Both the position numbers and the translations under genes were made by a program. A stretch of DNA of 64,000 bases from a virus. Taxonomy: Duplodnaviria > Heunggongvirae > Uroviricota > Caudoviricetes. Below the pieces are notes generated by a model. That model was not told the origin of the DNA, made no database searches, and was given only the letters and a program-made list of their open reading frames with translations. The stretch lies in IMG/VR virus record IMGVR_UViG_2654587772_000002; one strand, given 5' to 3'. Positions 38,635 through 46,919 of the stretch are shown one piece after another; positions within the stretch are counted from its first letter, which is position 1; every line of letters starts with the position of its first letter.

Positions 38635-38668
38635 ATAACTTCGTATAGCATACATTATACGAAGTTAT
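38635..38668 (+). other. loxP recombination site
   Basis: Exact ATAACTTCGTATA-GCATACAT-TATACGAAGTTAT. Confidence 0.98.
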
Positions 38669-38740
38669 ATTAAGGGTTATTGAATATGATCAATTTACCT
38701 GTAAATCCATACAGTTCAATACCTTGGCAGGTCAAATAGT

Positions 38741-38828
38741 GATCACTTGATCATTTGATCAAGGTTGCGCTACGTAAAATCTGTGAAAAATTGGCGGTGT
38801 TAGTCCTACAGATTTCGCGTAGCGCACT
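38741..38828 (+). promoter_or_regulatory. cre upstream regulatory region: three tandem GATC sites (TGATCACTTGATCATTTGATCA) and an 18-bp imperfect inverted repeat
   Basis: GATC triplet 38741-38765; inverted repeat GCGCTACGTAAAATCTGT / ACAGATTTCGCGTAGCGC. Confidence 0.5.
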
Positions 38829-38857
38829 TAGCACCACCAATCAATCAGAGGTGAAAA

Positions 38858-39079
38858 ATGGGATATTCAACTGCTAAAGTGTCCACTCATCTTGAGCTTG
38901 AGAAAAACCGTGGTTACTGGCGGGCAAAAGGGTTTGATCGTGATAGTTGCCAACTGTCATTATCGCGCGGTGAAGAAAAAATAGAACGCACGCGCGGTCG
39001 CTGGCGTTTCTATGACGAGAACCATAAACAGGTAAAGGCAGAGCCGATCCTGTACACTTTACTTAAAACCATTATCTGA
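38858..39079 (+). CDS. Small basic ORF (73 aa) immediately upstream of cre
   Basis: SD GAGGTG; coding status uncertain. Confidence 0.3.
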   Translation: MGYSTAKVSTHLELEKNRGYWRAKGFDRDSCQLSLSRGEEKIERTRGRWRFYDENHKQVKAEPILYTLLKTII

Positions 39080-39086
39080 GTGTTAA

Positions 39087-40118
39087 ATGTCCAATTTACT
39101 GACCGTACACCAAAATTTGCCTGCATTACCGGTCGATGCAACGAGTGATGAGGTTCGCAAGAATCTGATGGACATGTTCAGGGATCGCCAGGCGTTTTCT
39201 GAGCATACTTGGAAAATGCTTCTGTCCGTTTGCCGGTCGTGGGCGGCATGGTGCAAGTTGAATAACCGGAAGTGGTTTCCCGCAGAACCTGAAGATGTTC
39301 GCGATTATCTTCTATATCTTCAGGCGCGCGGTCTGGCAGTGAAAACTATCCAGCAACATTTGGGCCAGCTAAATATGCTTCATCGTCGGTCCGGGCTGCC
39401 ACGACCAAGTGACAGCAATGCTGTTTCACTGGTCATGCGACGGATCCGAAAAGAAAACGTTGATGCCGGTGAGCGTGCAAAACAGGCGCTGGCGTTCGAA
39501 CGCACTGATTTCGACCAGGTTCGTTCACTCATGGAAAATAGCGATCGCTGCCAGGATATACGTAATCTGGCATTTCTGGGGATTGCTTATAACACCCTGT
39601 TACGTATAGCCGAAATTTCCAGGATCAGAGTTAAAGATATCTCACGTACTGACGGTGGGAGAATGTTAATCCATATTGGCAGAACGAAAACGCTGGTTAG
39701 CACCGCTGGTGTAGAGAAGGCACTTAGTCTGGGGGTAACTAAACTGGTTGAGCGATGGATTTCTGTCTCTGGTGTGGCTGATGATCCGAATAACTACTTG
39801 TTTTGCCGTGTCAGAAAAAATGGTGTTGCCGCGCCATCTGCCACCAGCCAGCTATCAACTCGCGCCCTGGAAGGGATTTTTGAAGCAACTCACCGATTGA
39901 TTTACGGGGCTAAGGATGACTCTGGCCAGAGGTACCTGGCCTGGTCTGGACACAGTGCCCGTGTCGGAGCCGCGCGAGATATGGCCCGCGCCGGAGTTTC
40001 AATACCGGAGATCATGCAAGCTGGTGGCTGGACCAACGTAAATATTGTCATGAACTATATCCGTAACCTGGATAGTGAAACAGGGGCAATGGTGCGCCTG
40101 CTGGAAGATGGCGATTAG
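39087..40118 (+). CDS. cre: Cre tyrosine recombinase
   Basis: 343-aa sequence MSNLLTVHQNLPALPVDATSDEVRKNLMDMFRDRQAFSEHTWKMLLSVCRSWAAWCKL... matches Cre. Confidence 0.98.
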   Translation: MSNLLTVHQNLPALPVDATSDEVRKNLMDMFRDRQAFSEHTWKMLLSVCRSWAAWCKLNNRKWFPAEPEDVRDYLLYLQARGLAVKTIQQHLGQLNMLHRRSGLPRPSDSNAVSLVMRRIRKENVDAGERAKQALAFERTDFDQVRSLMENSDRCQDIRNLAFLGIAYNTLLRIAEISRIRVKDISRTDGGRMLIHIGRTKTLVSTAGVEKALSLGVTKLVERWISVSGVADDPNNYLFCRVRKNGVAAPSATSQLSTRALEGIFEATHRLIYGAKDDSGQRYLAWSGHSARVGAARDMARAGVSIPEIMQAGGWTNVNIVMNYIRNLDSETGAMVRLLEDGD

Positions 40119-40168
40119 CCATTAACGCGTAAATGATTGTTCTAATTCTTTGATATTTATGGTGACAT

Positions 40169-40480
40169 ATGAGAAAGGATTTCAACATCGACGGAAAATA
40201 TGTAGTGCTGTCTGTAAGCACTAATATTCAGTCGCCAGCCGTCATTGTCACTGTAAAGCTGAGCGATAGAATGCCTGATATTGACTCAATATCCGTTGCG
40301 TTCCCTGTCAAAAGTATGCGTGGTGCTGAACATTTCGTGATGAATGCCACCGAGGAAGAAGCACGGCGCGGTTTTGCTAAAGTAGTGTCTGACTTTGGCG
40401 AACTCTTGGATAAGGTTAACAATGTCCTTTCAATCAGTTCAGCAAGGTCCAAAGCGTTAACAGCTTCCATGATGAAATAA
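40169..40480 (+). CDS. Small protein downstream of cre (cra position)
   Basis: 103-aa ORF. Confidence 0.45.
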   Translation: MRKDFNIDGKYVVLSVSTNIQSPAVIVTVKLSDRMPDIDSISVAFPVKSMRGAEHFVMNATEEEARRGFAKVVSDFGELLDKVNNVLSISSARSKALTASMMK

Positions 40481-40607
40481 AAAAAGCCTGGCAAGGAACC
40501 AGGCTGCACAAAAGAGCGGGTTTGTGTTCCGCATCCAATCAATCAGAAAGGAGTATAGCACATAGATACTAAAGTGAAAAAATGTGACTGAAGATAAACA
40601 ATATAAC

Positions 40608-40624
40608 ATTGCTCTAATTGATTG
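40608..40624 (+). promoter_or_regulatory. C1-operator-like site ATTGCTCTAATTGATTG (14/17)
   Basis: At the position where P1 has the ref operator; here followed by cargo. Confidence 0.45.
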
Positions 40625-40828
40625 TTATAATTGAGCCGTGGCGTTAGTCAACTACGAAGACGTGGCCATTACCTACTTAACCAGTTCCGCCAGGGCAGCA
40701 GAGTAGGTTTCATCTCGGATGTACCATGCCTGCATGTTTTCCAGAGAAGCCCGCGAGGTTCCCGGACAGGACTCTGCCATTGCGATAGATTAAATGCAAT
40801 AACCTAAAAGCGATAACGTGGTGGAAAA

Positions 40829-41468
40829 ATGTTCATCAGAGCTTATTTAAGGGCATCAACGGAAGATCAGTTTGCCGATCGGGCAAAAGAGATGCTGGGG
40901 CAGTTTGTTCAGGAGCGGGGACATAAAATAGCCAGTTACTACCGGGAGAACATAAGCGGTACAAAACTCGACCGCCGGAACTGGGACGCTTACTGATGGA
41001 CAGCCACCGCAATGATATTTTACTGGTCGAGCAAATTGACCGCCTGACCCGTCTGAGTAACAGTGACTGGATTACGCTGAAAAAGCAGATAGAACAACAC
41101 GAACTGCGGATTGTCGCCTGGATGTATCCACCTCATGGCAGGCGCTGTCAGATAAAGACCCTTCGCAGGCTGACCCAATCACCCGCGCCGTGATAACCGC
41201 CATCAATAACATGCTTATCGACCTGATGGCCGCGATGTCGCATAAGGACTGGCTGAGCCGTCGCCAACGGCAACAACAGGGAATTGAACGGGCTCATACG
41301 CTGGGTAAATACCGGGGATAACAGGCCGATCAGGAACGGCATCAGAAAGTCCTGTACTACTGGCAGGTCAAGAAACTAAGTATCCATGAAACGGCAGATG
41401 CGACAGGGTACAGTCCTTCACAGATATGCCGCATTCAAGCCCTTTATAGAGAGCCTGAATCGGAATAA
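40829..41468 (+). pseudogene. Serine recombinase (resolvase/invertase family) pseudogene with at least 3 frame disruptions
   Basis: MFIRAYLRASTEDQ... / DRPELGRLLMDSHRNDILLVEQIDRLTRL / ...HETADATGYSPSQICRI (HTH) in three different frames. Confidence 0.6.
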
Positions 41469-41574
41469 AAAGTAGCCCAGGCGTTAATGGATTACCTTTC
41501 CAGGCTAAGCTCATTGCTCCTGTCAGATACGCAGCCCTGCCTGTAATAATACAGACTGGGCAATGTGTTGCCAC

Positions 41575-41976
41575 TCAGGCTGACAACTGTCGGAGGATAT
41601 CCGCTGTATTATAATGAGCCCGTTTTTCTATATATTTCCCGTCTTTCAGAGTGATCATAAACATCAGAGAAAAGCGCACTTTCCTGCCGCTGGCAGGATG
41701 CCCAAGGAATTCACGGGTCTGCACGCCTTCAAAGATAAGATAGCAGGCGACTTTATCGTCTCTGGCAAAGATTTCGTGGATACGCATTGTAAATCCCGGA
41801 AAAGCATCCATATGGCCTTTTTCCTGTACGATAAACTGCTCACTGTTCAGCGGTGTATCCACCTGAGAATAGAATTTAAAATCCGGATGGCAGAGGTTTT
41901 TCACCTCATCATATTTATTTTCTTCAATCAGACGATAAAACTTTTTAACCGTTTTGATATTTTCTTAAACAGACAT
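41575..41976 (-). pseudogene. SnoaL-like small protein with in-frame TAA at codon 4 (ATG TCT GTT TAA)
   Basis: Natural ATG at 41976 followed by stop at 41965-41967, frame then open to 41575; NTF2/SnoaL-like composition. Confidence 0.45.
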
Positions 41977-41984
41977 ATTGCACC

Positions 41985-42974
41985 TCATTTTTCAGTTTCT
42001 TTACCTGCCGGAATATTGCCTTCCGGCGTTCCGTTAAATGTTTTTCGCCATTCACTGGGACTGACTCCCATCCGCTGCCGGAATATCTGCCGGAAAGTAA
42101 TGGTGGACTGAAAGCCTGCCAGTTCGGCAACCCGCTCCACTGCAATATCTGTACTTTCCAGCAGTTCCTGACTCCGCCGGAGACGCTCTGTGGTGATCCA
42201 CTCCCAGACCGTCATTCCTGTGGCCGAATGAAAATGGCGTGTAAGCGTTCTTCGGCTCATGGAGGCTAAATGGGCCAGAGTGTCAATATCATGTGGTAAT
42301 CCCAGATTTGCGGACAGGTATTCCAGCAGCTGGTTTATGCGGTTATCGGACGTACTTTTGGGAATAAGCAGTTGCCGGTACTGTGCCTGTCCGCCTTCCC
42401 GGTAAGGAGGAGCAACCATCCGGCGGGCTATTTGATTAGCCGTATATCTGCCCAGGCGTTGCCGGATCACATGGAGACAACAGTCCAGTGCTGCGGCTGT
42501 ACCGGCTGAGGTGATAATCCGCTCGTCCTCAACATAAAGCACGTTCACGTCCAGATGAACCGCCGGGAAAAGCATCTGGAAATCCCGTTCAGCCTCCCAG
42601 TGCGTGGCCGCCCGTTTACCATCCAGCAGACCGGTGTAAGCCAGAACAAAACTCCCCAGGCACAGGCCCACCACCTGAGCTCCATTTTTCCAGGCTGCAA
42701 CCAGGGCACTGAGCAGAGTTTCAGAAGGCCTTTCATGGATGTGTTTCCAGAAAGGAATAATAACGATATCGGCCTCTGCCAGTGCATCAAGCCCGTATTC
42801 TGCCCTCATCGCCGTACCTTCAGCAGACCAGATAAGCCCGGGCTCTTCCGCACATACCCGGCGGCTGAAGAGGGCCTTCCCTTCCAGTATCTCCCCGAAC
42901 AGGATTAATGGAACGGAGACATGAAATGTACTGAACCCTTCGGTGATCACTATAGCGACAGTGATGGTGGACAT
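41985..42974 (-). CDS. GlxA-family transcriptional regulator (DJ-1/PfpI domain + AraC HTH)
   Basis: N-terminal class-I glutamine amidotransferase-like region, C-terminal AraC-type HTH. Confidence 0.75.
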   Translation of the reverse strand: MSTITVAIVITEGFSTFHVSVPLILFGEILEGKALFSRRVCAEEPGLIWSAEGTAMRAEYGLDALAEADIVIIPFWKHIHERPSETLLSALVAAWKNGAQVVGLCLGSFVLAYTGLLDGKRAATHWEAERDFQMLFPAVHLDVNVLYVEDERIITSAGTAAALDCCLHVIRQRLGRYTANQIARRMVAPPYREGGQAQYRQLLIPKSTSDNRINQLLEYLSANLGLPHDIDTLAHLASMSRRTLTRHFHSATGMTVWEWITTERLRRSQELLESTDIAVERVAELAGFQSTITFRQIFRQRMGVSPSEWRKTFNGTPEGNIPAGKETEK

Positions 42975-42989
42975 GCCATGGCCTCCGGG

Positions 42990-43766
42990 TTAAATCGTAA
43001 CTGATTCACCATCAGCAGGAGCGACAACTGACGCCTGGATCTGGTTATCGCGGGCATATTCCAGCAGTTCCTGACGGGTCAGCAGACAGTGGTTTACGGC
43101 CTCCATGTGCGTTGCCACAATCAGTGCCTCTGGTACGATACGATGGGCTTTCAGGACATCTTCCCTGCCGAAAATAATGGGGCCGAATCCGAGAACATGC
43201 GCCCAGCCCGTATTCATAATAACGACGCCAGGATTGAACCGACGTAAATTATCCTCTACAGCCTTGATCCAGATGGTATCCCCAACCAGATAGAGCGTTT
43301 TTTCGGACGGATGCTGGAAGACCACCCCACAGGCATCCCCAAGAATTGCTGCGAGTTGCGGGTTAGCATAGGCTTCGTCCGAACCATGCTGACAAACGGT
43401 TTTAATAAGTGAAATTTCGCCAAATGTGCTTTTGTCAGACAGAATAACAAGGTTGCTGAAGCCCTGGGAACGCAGGATCTTTTCATCATGTTCATTCTGA
43501 ACATAAATCAGTTTATCTTTCGGGATGTGCGCAACAGCCGCTTCATCCCAGTGGTCAGGGTGTGTGTGGGTGACAATAATGGCATCCACATCCAGCAGTA
43601 CATCAAGGTCAAAAGGCAGCTCAGTCATCGGGATGCGGATATCTGACCGGGCCGTTCCTTCGAATCCCGGATAGGCTTCTTTTTTCGCAAGCATCGGATC
43701 GACAAGAAATTTTTTACCAGCGTAAGAAATGAGTTGTGTGGCGTTACGTACCTGGATGATCTTCAT
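42990..43766 (-). CDS. MBL-fold metallo-hydrolase
   Basis: THTHPDHWDE (HxHxDH) motif. Confidence 0.75.
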   Translation of the reverse strand: MKIIQVRNATQLISYAGKKFLVDPMLAKKEAYPGFEGTARSDIRIPMTELPFDLDVLLDVDAIIVTHTHPDHWDEAAVAHIPKDKLIYVQNEHDEKILRSQGFSNLVILSDKSTFGEISLIKTVCQHGSDEAYANPQLAAILGDACGVVFQHPSEKTLYLVGDTIWIKAVEDNLRRFNPGVVIMNTGWAHVLGFGPIIFGREDVLKAHRIVPEALIVATHMEAVNHCLLTRQELLEYARDNQIQASVVAPADGESVTI

Positions 43767-43981
43767 TTTAGCAAGTCCTGTATTGGTTAATAACCATCAG
43801 AGCCATATCATGATGGCCTAATGTGATAATTATGATTAAATCAGGCCTGCCTGCCACTGAAATAATGCCATATTTGGATGATATCAGGCCATTCTTCTGG
43901 CTCTCAGGTTTCAGGAATATGTCTGCTGAAAGCGGGTACAGATCTGACGCATTGAAGGGAAGTATCGTCCTTTAAGGCTTA

Positions 43982-44371
43982 TTGATGTCAGCCAGTACAA
44001 AAAATCATCTTAACGTACAATATCTTCCGTTTCCCAAACGGAGCCCACCAACGACGGAGGAACGGCGCATCGCCAATGCTCTTGGCGCTCTCCCCTGCAT
44101 TGCCTGCTATATGCCTGGAGTAATATCTAATGAGGTGTCTCTGAACCATATCGCCGGTCGTACCGCGCCGGGTTGTCACAAAAAGCAATTGCCACTTTGT
44201 AGATGGCACCACCAGCATGCAGCACCGGCTGAAGTAAGAGAAAAATACCCCTGGCTGGTCCCTGTTCATGCCGATGGTGTGGTTGGAGGCAAGAAAGAAT
44301 TCACCTTGCTGAACAAGTCAGAGATGGAGTTGCTGGCTGACGCCTATGAAATGGCAAACGTCATGCACTAA
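43982..44371 (+). CDS. Cys/His-rich small protein (possible HNH/Ref-like nuclease core)
   Basis: CIACY...NHIAG...GCHKK..PLCRWHHQH pattern. Confidence 0.35.
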   Translation: MMSASTKNHLNVQYLPFPKRSPPTTEERRIANALGALPCIACYMPGVISNEVSLNHIAGRTAPGCHKKQLPLCRWHHQHAAPAEVREKYPWLVPVHADGVVGGKKEFTLLNKSEMELLADAYEMANVMH

Positions 44372-44378
44372 TAAATAT
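44362..44378 (+). promoter_or_regulatory. Weak C1-operator-like site (13/17)
   Basis: ATGCACTAATAAATAT. Confidence 0.3.
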
Positions 44379-44560
44379 ATTATTTTTAATCTTAAATGAT
44401 TGACAACTGACAAGTGACTTGAGTCAGAATCATCACACGCCCGGTACGGATGGATCCCTTTTCAAATATTCCATGGACGGCACAGTCTGAGTACCGGGCG
44501 CTACCTTCTGTTGTATTGCTAAGCCGCCGCTGGTGGCTTTTCTTTTTTATAGGGGGCGAT

Positions 44561-45205
44561 ATGGATAAGAAAATATGCGTTGTTTCGATGAGCGTCGGTA
44601 AACCGGCGTCAATGACTGCTGCATGGATCAACAACGAGCTGATAATGGCTGAGCGGACCAGCTACCCTGAACGCCGCCGCGATATGGAACTCCAGCTGCT
44701 GCGCGAATTGCGAGAAAAAGAGGAAAAGGGTTTTATCGTGCTGGTGGAAGAGGAAAACAGCTTTATTACCGGTCGAGTTGGCCAGCGTGTAAGGTTGCGC
44801 GATCCCTTCATGAACGGCAGGCCGGTACTAATTGAAGCAATGCAGATTTACAAGGAGCTGGAACGCCAGAAAGCGATCAAGTTACCGCGCAAGGAATCCG
44901 GCAAATACATCCTCCACCAAAGCATCTTCGATTCCGAACACGATAAAAAAGGCGATGAGTTTTTCAACATCAACTGGAGCGAAATAACGACAGAGCATGT
45001 TCTGACGTTGTTATGCTGCTTCGCAACAGAATACAACAACGTGGTAAGCGCAGACTACATCAGGACAATGACAGACACCGTTACTAAACAAGACAACGAA
45101 TATTCACCATATGAGCCATTTGTAAATATGATAAAAGCATTTTATCGGATGGAGCTCGCTAAAGTTCCTCAAGGTAAATTAACAGGTAAGGATAACATCT
45201 TTTAA
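44561..45205 (+). CDS. Hypothetical protein (214 aa)
   Basis: AGGGGG SD, ATG 44561. Confidence 0.45.
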   Translation: MDKKICVVSMSVGKPASMTAAWINNELIMAERTSYPERRRDMELQLLRELREKEEKGFIVLVEEENSFITGRVGQRVRLRDPFMNGRPVLIEAMQIYKELERQKAIKLPRKESGKYILHQSIFDSEHDKKGDEFFNINWSEITTEHVLTLLCCFATEYNNVVSADYIRTMTDTVTKQDNEYSPYEPFVNMIKAFYRMELAKVPQGKLTGKDNIF

Positions 45206-45258: not shown

Positions 45259-45948
45259 TCATAAATCTGATAGCCACTTACTATCTATGGACTCAATCTC
45301 CGTCAGCGGAATTGATGGGAAAAAATATCCCTGAGCGCCCCATAGCCCTATTCCTTTTGATAACTTATGACAATCAATGTTTTCGACGCCTTCAGCGATG
45401 ATATTCGGACATAACTTTTTTAAATTGCTAATAATGACATCAAAATGAGGCTTAATCATATGCTCTTGAAAAAATGACTTATCAAGTTTTATTGCATGGT
45501 ATTTATTTTTAATTAATGCTTTCATGGTGGCGTTACCACTTCCAAAATCATCAAGCCAAACATAGTCTGTCAAAGTCAGGAGAAAGGGTATAACGTAATC
45601 CTCATCGCTTAAATCAGGGTAGTTTTCTGATATCTCAAGAACTATAAATTTATTGTTTTTAATTAACTCTTGAGTTTGTTTATTACTGTATATATATATA
45701 CATGTATCATAATCTACATTAATAGAACATAGTATATTATGGCGTTCAAAAAAACACTTGTATTTCATTATTGTGTTAAGTTGTGATTTAAGTAAATTAA
45801 TCTTCATCTTATTGGTAAACATACCCAATACTCTTTGAGTAGGAAGAGCGACACCATCTTTGGAGCGAAATCTGCTTAACACTTCTACTGCAATCAACTT
45901 GTTCGTGCTCGTAGAAATGATTGGTTCTGCAATGTAGATAACTTCCAT
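45259..45948 (-). CDS. Stand-alone EAL-domain protein (c-di-GMP phosphodiesterase-like), AT-rich gene
   Basis: EVL(SRF), ENYP, DDFGSG, KLDKSF, EGVE motifs in EAL order. Confidence 0.75.
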   Translation of the reverse strand: MEVIYIAEPIISTSTNKLIAVEVLSRFRSKDGVALPTQRVLGMFTNKMKINLLKSQLNTIMKYKCFFERHNILCSINVDYDTCIYIYSNKQTQELIKNNKFIVLEISENYPDLSDEDYVIPFLLTLTDYVWLDDFGSGNATMKALIKNKYHAIKLDKSFFQEHMIKPHFDVIISNLKKLCPNIIAEGVENIDCHKLSKGIGLWGAQGYFFPSIPLTEIESIDSKWLSDL

Positions 45949-46184
45949 ATCCCCACCCTCAAGTTTTAAATTGCTTGATTTTGCTCAGATAACGAGCCCC
46001 CTATATTTACAAGAGTTACACTCTACTTTTGTAGATTAAATGTCAATTTATTTGTTTGTGATAATATTGAAAAATATCAATTAAAACAATCAAAAAATGT
46101 GACATAAATCAATAATTTTATTTTTACACAACTTCTTGATTTCTGAGCCTAGCTATCTCTATTCTTATTCAAAGCCTCTTTAGA

Positions 46185-46919
46185 ATGGTGGTGGCCATGT
46201 CAGCAGTTTGTTACTTCATACTCATAAAGAAACCTATAAGCTTTCAATTTCTTAAGGATTTCTTAATATTAAATTATGGTGATGTGTTGTTGCTTAAGCA
46301 TTCTGAGCATGAATGCTTAAAAATCTATTCAGACAAATATATAGAATTCGAACTCAATGATAATACCGTAAGAAACTATTTATCATGCAACAACAACCAT
46401 GGAAACCAATCGCTGGATAAGTGTCCGCATTTGCTAAAAAAGTCTTTTGCCTATCCTGATTTATTAATCAGGATGATCGATAATATAAGCGATCAAAATC
46501 ATATCCATTCTGATTTTAGGGAGGCAGTAACTTTTTCATTACTCTCAATTTTTAATGATGTTGATAACTTTAGAGCATTTCTTACGTCTGGTATGCCCAC
46601 TTTCTCAGGGAAAGTGCGCAGCATATTTCTTTCAGATGTATCTAAACACTGGAAACTAAGAGACCTAACCGATTATCTCTACATGAGTGAAAGCTTAATA
46701 AAGAAAAAACTATTATTGGAAAACACCTCCTTCAGTAAGTTATTACTTGATACACGGATGGCTTTTGCTATTAAATTACTAAAGCAAAATCATCCAGTCA
46801 AACAAGTATCAGAAAGCTGTGGCTTTAGTAGTACATCGTACTTTGTGTGCCTGTTCAGGCAATATTATAATTGCACGCCACGTGAATATGCAAAACATCA
46901 ATTATTATCTGGAAAATAA
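46185..46919 (+). CDS. AraC-family regulator of the AppY/EnvY/GadX/Rns type, AT-rich gene
   Basis: C-terminal HTH closely resembles E. coli AppY (WKLRDLTDYLYMSESLIKKKL...TRMAFAIKLL...SSTSYFVCLFRQYY). Confidence 0.75.
   Translation: MVVAMSAVCYFILIKKPISFQFLKDFLILNYGDVLLLKHSEHECLKIYSDKYIEFELNDNTVRNYLSCNNNHGNQSLDKCPHLLKKSFAYPDLLIRMIDNISDQNHIHSDFREAVTFSLLSIFNDVDNFRAFLTSGMPTFSGKVRSIFLSDVSKHWKLRDLTDYLYMSESLIKKKLLLENTSFSKLLLDTRMAFAIKLLKQNHPVKQVSESCGFSSTSYFVCLFRQYYNCTPREYAKHQLLSGK

Follow-up and report, generated by a model that had tools for sequence, protein, structure and literature searches.

A serine recombinase gene and a SnoaL-like gene lie next to each other in an accessory island of a tailed-phage genome (IMG/VR record IMGVR_UViG_2654587772_000002, Caudoviricetes), and both appear to be broken. 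The locus raises the question of whether these reading frames are genuinely decayed, have been corrupted by sequencing or assembly, or are still expressed by some unusual translational route. The original prediction, made from the 64,000-nucleotide stretch analysed here (the window) without database searches, was that they belong to an acquired module undergoing decay, unless errors had produced the lesions.

The island is embedded in a P1-like backbone. The window has the lox-cra-cre-c8 / ref-mat synteny of phage P1, which identifies it as a P1-like phage-plasmid (Punavirus). This assignment rests on the two stretches around the island: positions 38652-40672 are 96.9% identical to positions 1-2026 of P1 (NC_005856), and positions 44040-45070 are 96.3% identical to P1 2306-3336 (blastn). 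Full-length Cre is encoded at 39087-40118 and is followed by c8 at 40169-40480 in the list of open reading frames (ORFs). Inspection of the junctions places the borders of the foreign DNA at 40673 and 44046 (3374 bp, or about 3.4 kb), with its left edge at 40673 joined to P1 coordinate 2026. It stands where P1 has the P1ref promoter and roughly codons 1-78 of ref. P1 homology resumes at P1 coordinate 2313 with a 5'-truncated ref, from about codon 79, at 44047-44371 on the plus strand (blastn against NC_005856), which RefSeq labels as "Ref family protein, incomplete, missing N-terminus".

P1-like phage-plasmids with cargo (p12579_1, pTetA_020022, RCS47, SJ46, and JL22) have the lox-cra-cre-c8-ref-mat backbone in common with the window, at 95% to 97% identity to P1. 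The accessory cargo of the window is not an antibiotic resistance gene. Downstream of mat, positions 45259-46919 of the window hold an EAL-domain gene (45259-45948, minus strand) and an AraC-type regulator-like ORF (46185-46919), whereas p12579_1 has SIR2-family ORFs there. P1 itself carries the EcoP1I res-mod genes at this place, which is the known variable region of P1-like plasmids. P1-like elements with transposon-borne cargo are well described (PMC9603915, PMC9600943). However, the insertion site in ref is absent from the eight "highly variable regions" of P1-like plasmids (PMC9603915), and the literature on these plasmids that we found, consisting of general descriptions and p12579_1, does not describe an insertion of the island in ref.

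Comparison with intact homologs located the lesions in both genes. Alignment to the intact 642-nt recombinase gene of plasmid pEcFELIX705.1 places the window copy, here called tnpR, at 40829-41468 on the plus strand and reveals two 1-bp deletions and one in-frame nonsense codon. A single C has been deleted from a CCC run at 40975-40976 (GAC CGC CCG GAA in the intact gene), an A has been deleted between 41115 and 41116 (GTC AGC CTG in the intact gene), and Lys165 (AAA) has become TAA at 41319-41321. The coding sequence is thereby spread over three frames, with longest ORFs of 55, 65, and 43 amino acids followed by an open tail. It had been predicted that the resolvase is broken into several frames, which is the case, and that it is readable only by switching frame at least three times, which is not, since two switches and passage of one stop codon would be needed. 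Neither of the two recombinase lesion sites proposed at the outset coincides with a frameshift: within 40880-40900 the sole change is a substitution (E24G, at 40899), and positions 41130-41160 are downstream of the real deletion. With the two missing bases restored, tnpR is colinear with the intact 213-amino-acid homolog (642 versus 642 nt), and 14 of the 213 codons differ, frameshifts aside (96% amino acid identity). Over tnpR and snoaL together, the window is about 98% identical to pEcFELIX705.1, and the colinearity of the repaired tnpR and snoaL frames with intact homologs far exceeds chance.

The family to which the recombinase belonged is clear from its intact homolog, which matches the Pfam resolvase domain (PF00239) over residues 5-161 (75.1 bits versus a cut-off of 23.3; E = 8e-21), carries a helix-turn-helix (HTH) domain, and has distant matches in the PDB to Tn552 Bin3 and to the gamma-delta and Tn3 resolvases. 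The window preserves the sequence MFIRAYLRAS(10)TEDQ found in all intact homologs, in which S10 would be the nucleophile by analogy with gamma-delta resolvase. However, no single uninterrupted frame extends from the catalytic domain to the HTH domain. Judged from its sequence, tnpR is a pseudogene of the small serine recombinase family and not a functional member of it, and RefSeq labels it as "frameshifted; internal stop".

The lesion in the neighboring gene is simpler. snoaL occupies 41575-41976 on the minus strand and is colinear with an intact 133-amino-acid homolog annotated as an ester cyclase. As originally noted, and at the position proposed, it begins ATG TCT GTT TAA (41976-41965); past this TAA, 129 open codons lead up to a stop at 41575-41577. 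The TAA at 41965-41967 stands in place of GAA (Glu4), and all ten intact proteins retrieved from this cluster begin with MSVEENIK, with GAA at codon 4. The stop precedes the entire SnoaL domain, which in the intact homolog covers residues 9-131 (Pfam PF07366; E = 4e-24; 85.4 bits versus a cut-off of 28.4) and is still recognizable in the window downstream of the stop (84.5 bits versus the same cut-off). The intact homolog therefore resembles the SnoaL-like polyketide cyclases of the NTF2-like superfamily over its full length and above the gathering score, and the window gene differs from these members in having a stop at codon 4. Against the NCBIfam model for true SnoaL/DnrD methyl-ester cyclases, the intact homolog scores only 26 bits, with a cut-off of 200. 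Because its scores are below the NCBIfam cut-offs, the protein is, by sequence, a generic family member. None of the four module proteins received an equivalog-level name from NCBIfam.

The frameshifts and the TAA might be sequencing or assembly errors in genes that are intact in the real molecule, and one of the two deletions does shorten a C run from CCC to CC, at a type of site that some platforms miscall. However, homopolymer miscalls do not explain the second deletion (the A of GTCAGCC) or either nonsense substitution, and the same sequence recurs in records from many laboratories, years, and platforms. The island is identical at 3374 of 3374 positions to that of p12579_1 from Escherichia coli O55:H7 RM12579 (NC_017653). 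Dozens of complete plasmids (more than 50) have the 1.4-kb region at 99.9% to 100% identity, as do 63 complete E. coli genomes; in PLSDB, at least 80% of the region is covered by 57 records. The 55-amino-acid product of the first frameshift occurs on at least 1000 contigs. Within PLSDB, the snoaL 65-mer with the TAA is found exactly in 53 plasmids, compared with 32 that have one to three mismatches, and the first frameshift is exact in 43, compared with 28 at 95% to 99% identity.

The lesions are furthermore nested among sister plasmids in a phylogeny-like pattern, which is not expected of errors. In pTetA_020022 and pLR-25_1 the island occupies the identical P1 site but has only the 41115/41116 deletion and K165*; the CCC run and GAA codon are intact in both, and a 133-amino-acid ester cyclase is annotated. 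The snoaL 65-mer of pTetA_020022 differs by exactly one base, in the GAA codon. CP010234, at the other end of the series, has all of the window lesions and an extra 2-bp deletion at 41173-4. Taken together, these records leave the error explanation with virtually no probability, and the sequences compared identify the lesions as real and inherited.

The region was detected in plasmid records only, and a megablast search of positions 40600-42000 against a phage collection returned no match. A copy that is 100% identical is located at 2175844-2177171 of NZ_CP007393.1, a 5.0-Mb chromosome record of E. coli ST2747; this is either an integrated P1-like element or a plasmid that was merged into the chromosome during assembly. 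In some other copies, TnAs1, another Tn3-family element, or IS1 has interrupted the region further. In NZ_AP027771.1 the glxA gene is truncated by a Tn3-family element, in NZ_CP156815.1 the tnpR pseudogene is truncated at about window position 41152 by a TnAs1-family element, and IS1A is present within the island region in NZ_CP100527.1 and NZ_CP178692.1. Tn3-family relics thus appear to draw further insertions.

Real lesions could still be compatible with expression if the recombinase were produced by programmed recoding, through ribosomal frameshifting or stop read-through, as occurs in some insertion sequence transposases. The remaining frames do encode recognizable resolvase sequence, which is all that speaks for this idea. 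Two independent +1 shifts and read-through of the TAA would be required, neither frameshift site has a slippery heptamer (GACCGCCGGAA; ATTGTCGCCTGG), and hundreds of close homologs have one unbroken ORF of 209 to 218 amino acids. The lesions also vary between sister plasmids, derived substitutions have occurred at invariant residues, and tnpA and most of the res site have been lost as well. Programmed frameshifting was rejected on the absence of slippery motifs and the variation among sister plasmids, and recoding of any kind is extremely improbable.

The origin of the broken genes is apparent from intact copies of the four-gene module in pEcFELIX705.1 and pEcFELIX724.1, which encode a 213-amino-acid recombinase, a 133-amino-acid "ester cyclase", a 329-amino-acid GlxA-family regulator, and a 258-amino-acid MBL-fold hydrolase. 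The complete element is about 6.4 kb long and has the order IRL-tnpA-res-tnpR-snoaL-glxA-MBL-IRR. In pEcFELIX724.1, a gene of 2979 nt (about 3 kb) annotated as a Tn3 family transposase (tnpA) is divergent from the recombinase gene; tnpA starts at 3380 and tnpR at 3548, with an intergenic region of 167 bp. This element has 38-bp terminal inverted repeats (left, GGGGTCAGTTTGGAGATCGAAAATTATTGTACGTTAAG; right, GGGCTCCGTTTGGGAAACGGAAAATATTGTACGTTAAG) and is flanked on both sides by the 5-bp direct repeat TATAG. Because of the divergent tnpA, the 38-bp inverted repeats, and the TATAG repeats, the cargo island is identified as part of a Tn3-family transposon and its "serine recombinase" as the TnpR of that transposon.

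The intact relative in pEcFELIX724.1 shares with Tn3 and gamma-delta/Tn1000 the 38-bp inverted repeats of the form GGGG...ACGTTAAG, divergent genes for TnpA and a small serine resolvase, passenger genes, and a 5-bp target duplication. However, its TnpR is longer than the Tn3 and gamma-delta resolvases (213 versus 183 to 185 amino acids) and matches them only distantly (PDB E of about 1e-4); the best PDB match is Tn552 Bin3 (3e-6).

The window module is the right-hand two thirds of such a transposon, inserted in P1 ref. In place of a full-length DDE transposase of about 1000 amino acids, 105 to 109 bp (about 35 codons) are left at 40673-40781 on the minus strand, an internal tnpA fragment without start or end whose translation aligns with about residues 625-659 of the pEcFELIX724.1 tnpA product. 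This fragment matches more than 1000 plasmid regions (blastn), many of which bear a Tn3 family transposase annotation, and is an incomplete pseudogene in RefSeq. Next to it, at 40782-40828 (plus strand), are the last 47 of the 167 bp of the tnpA-tnpR intergenic region, where homology to both intact copies starts at 40782; by analogy with the Tn3/gamma-delta layout, the crossover subsite of res would have been lost. The right terminal inverted repeat is present at 44009-44046 on the minus strand (GGGCTCCGTTTGGGAAACGGAAGATATTGTACGTTAAG, read inward) and is identical to that of pEcFELIX724.1 at 37 of 38 positions. It has no partner in the window, since at the left end P1 sequence is joined directly to the tnpA fragment; this left end is deleted, and a target-site duplication of the kind that flanks the pEcFELIX724.1 element is seen only there. 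With the left inverted repeat, all but a fragment of tnpA, the greater part of res, and 286 bp of the P1 ref region gone, the element is immobilized and its transposition and resolution machinery is dead. Unlike Tn3-family transposons in general, the window copy has lost the capacity for transposition and resolution, as only one inverted repeat, 105 bp of tnpA, 47 bp of res, and a tnpR with three lesions are left.

The right end of the transposon creates a chimeric ORF of 129 amino acids with a TTG start (43982-44371, plus strand), which begins about 27 nt upstream of the inverted repeat, crosses it, and runs into the C-terminal part of P1 Ref. Since parts of the P1ref promoter and of the C1 operator Oref region are missing, the Ref core, if it is expressed at all, would depend on transposon-borne signals.

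Sequence identity varies along the island. At the DNA level, identity to the reference element is only about 73% in the tnpA fragment but about 98% in the neighboring tnpR. The source of the fragment may therefore be another, related Tn3-family element, as opposed to an internal deletion of the same transposon. A blastn search with the fragment gave no conclusive match to a closer full-length source. Further to the right, identity to pEcFELIX705.1 shifts sharply at about 41790-41905, from about 98% over 40800-41900 (tnpR and most of snoaL) to about 87% over 41900-43950 (the 5' end of snoaL, glxA, and MBL). In these alignments, the drop implies that diverged alleles of one and the same transposon have recombined at a point within snoaL.

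We consider it very probable that the disrupted genes belong to an immobilized Tn3-family transposon relic on a P1-like phage-plasmid and that they decayed after immobilization. According to this history, a complete element (IRL to IRR, with 5-bp target duplications) would have inserted into P1 ref, and a later rearrangement would have taken out the left inverted repeat, almost the entire tnpA gene, roughly 120 bp of res, and a 286-bp stretch of P1 comprising the ref promoter and ref codons 1-78. TnpR would then have been left without a transposase partner or a complete res site. In the P1 replicon, dimers are resolved by its own Cre/lox system. Since transposase and a complete res site were missing and dimer resolution was already provided, tnpR was presumably free to drift, and its lesions accumulated stepwise. 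The 1-bp deletion at 41115/6 and K165*, which are common to all P1-context copies examined, represent the first step, the 1-bp deletion at 40975-6 in the sublineage of the window the second, and the further 2-bp deletion in another plasmid the third. In the window sublineage, snoaL also acquired its G-to-T nonsense mutation at codon 4. This order can be read directly from the comparisons with sister plasmids, among them pTetA_020022 and pLR-25_1, which hold only the second frameshift and K165* together with an intact snoaL.

The substitutions in tnpR are consistent with such drift. Six derived changes (E24G, M82I, P101S, K165*, R179W, and R187H) are at positions that are invariant in the ten intact homologs against which their polarity was assigned (at position 187, R or K), and at most five differences, counted without polarity, are synonymous. 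tnpR thus appears to be under relaxed constraint.

The same is not true of the whole module. The GlxA/FtrA-like AraC-family regulator gene (41985-42974, minus strand) is intact and, at 329 amino acids, has the same length as in the intact transposon copies; its product has the Pfam DJ-1/PfpI and HTH_18 domains and scores below the cut-off of the NCBIfam FtrA-like model. The gene for the MBL-fold metallo-hydrolase (42990-43766, minus strand; 258 amino acids; Pfam Lactamase_B_2) is intact as well. The exact protein sequences of both occur on at least 1000 contigs each. Relative to pEcFELIX705.1, the regulator gene has 65 synonymous and 27 non-synonymous codon differences and the hydrolase gene has 80 and 43, which indicates, from codon comparisons, purifying selection over the longer divergence from those alleles. 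The two P1-context alleles differ by two synonymous and no non-synonymous changes in glxA and by two of each in MBL. A scan of the island for promoters and terminators yielded sites no more numerous than in shuffled sequence. The original view of an acquired module under decay is therefore well founded as far as the element is concerned, a Tn3-family remnant in P1 ref with dead machinery and an early nonsense codon in one of three passengers. However, decay extends to tnpR and snoaL and not to the full-length regulator and hydrolase genes.

Whether snoaL has lost its function depends on translation initiation. A Shine-Dalgarno (SD)-like GAGGTG is located 5 nt upstream of the original ATG, but translation from this start ends at the TAA. 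It is conceivable, though unlikely, that translation restarts after the three-codon mini-ORF at ATC (41958), ATT, or GTG (41904) and yields a slightly shortened, functional enzyme. A 127-amino-acid model starting at ATC would retain the whole Pfam SnoaL domain (E = 7e-24), and a ribosome terminating at the TAA would be 6 nt from this codon. The frame is open past the TAA and has no added lesion in the compared copies, and the TAA allele is common, as the 53 PLSDB plasmids with the exact 65-mer attest. However, no SD-like motif is found at the proper distance from any of the three candidate restarts, ATC and ATT initiate translation very poorly in E. coli, and the GTG model loses 24 residues, including the first 16 domain positions. 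The absence of further lesions is expected of an allele this young, in which about 0.4% of sites differ from the intact P1-context allele.

RefSeq and GenBank models of the TAA-bearing gene vary by record between 127 (ATC), 118 (ATT), and 109 amino acids (GTG), as in NC_017653, CP010234, and the cluster members P0006 and P0011, none of which is marked as a pseudogene; the three differing starts mark these models as rescue guesses by annotation pipelines. Because the stop precedes the whole domain and no canonical SD-preceded restart is near, the TAA allele is, by its sequence, most likely null or strongly hypomorphic. The stop lies in the final gene of the MBL-glxA-snoaL string, in which the intergenic gaps are 15 and 8 nt, and should therefore leave the intact MBL and glxA-like genes unaffected. 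SnoaL E4* is also the commoner allele among P1-context copies. That selection, and not neutral decay, favored the loss or down-tuning of this final gene, or that the stop is bypassed by termination-reinitiation at a non-canonical start to give a trimmed enzyme, is improbable.

The locus is thus a case of ordinary gene decay. The recombinase lesion, the tnpA fragment, and the truncation of ref are already flagged in RefSeq; the snoaL lesion is unflagged, hidden behind the ATC, ATT, or GTG start models, and public annotation of this "ester cyclase" is inconsistent. The biological weight of the finding is small, as this is a textbook example of a transposon stranded in a phage-plasmid, where a now-useless resolvase decays. 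The nested lesions are, nevertheless, handy markers of descent within a clade of P1-like plasmids that is very widespread, in the order second frameshift and K165*, then first frameshift and SnoaL E4*, then further deletions.
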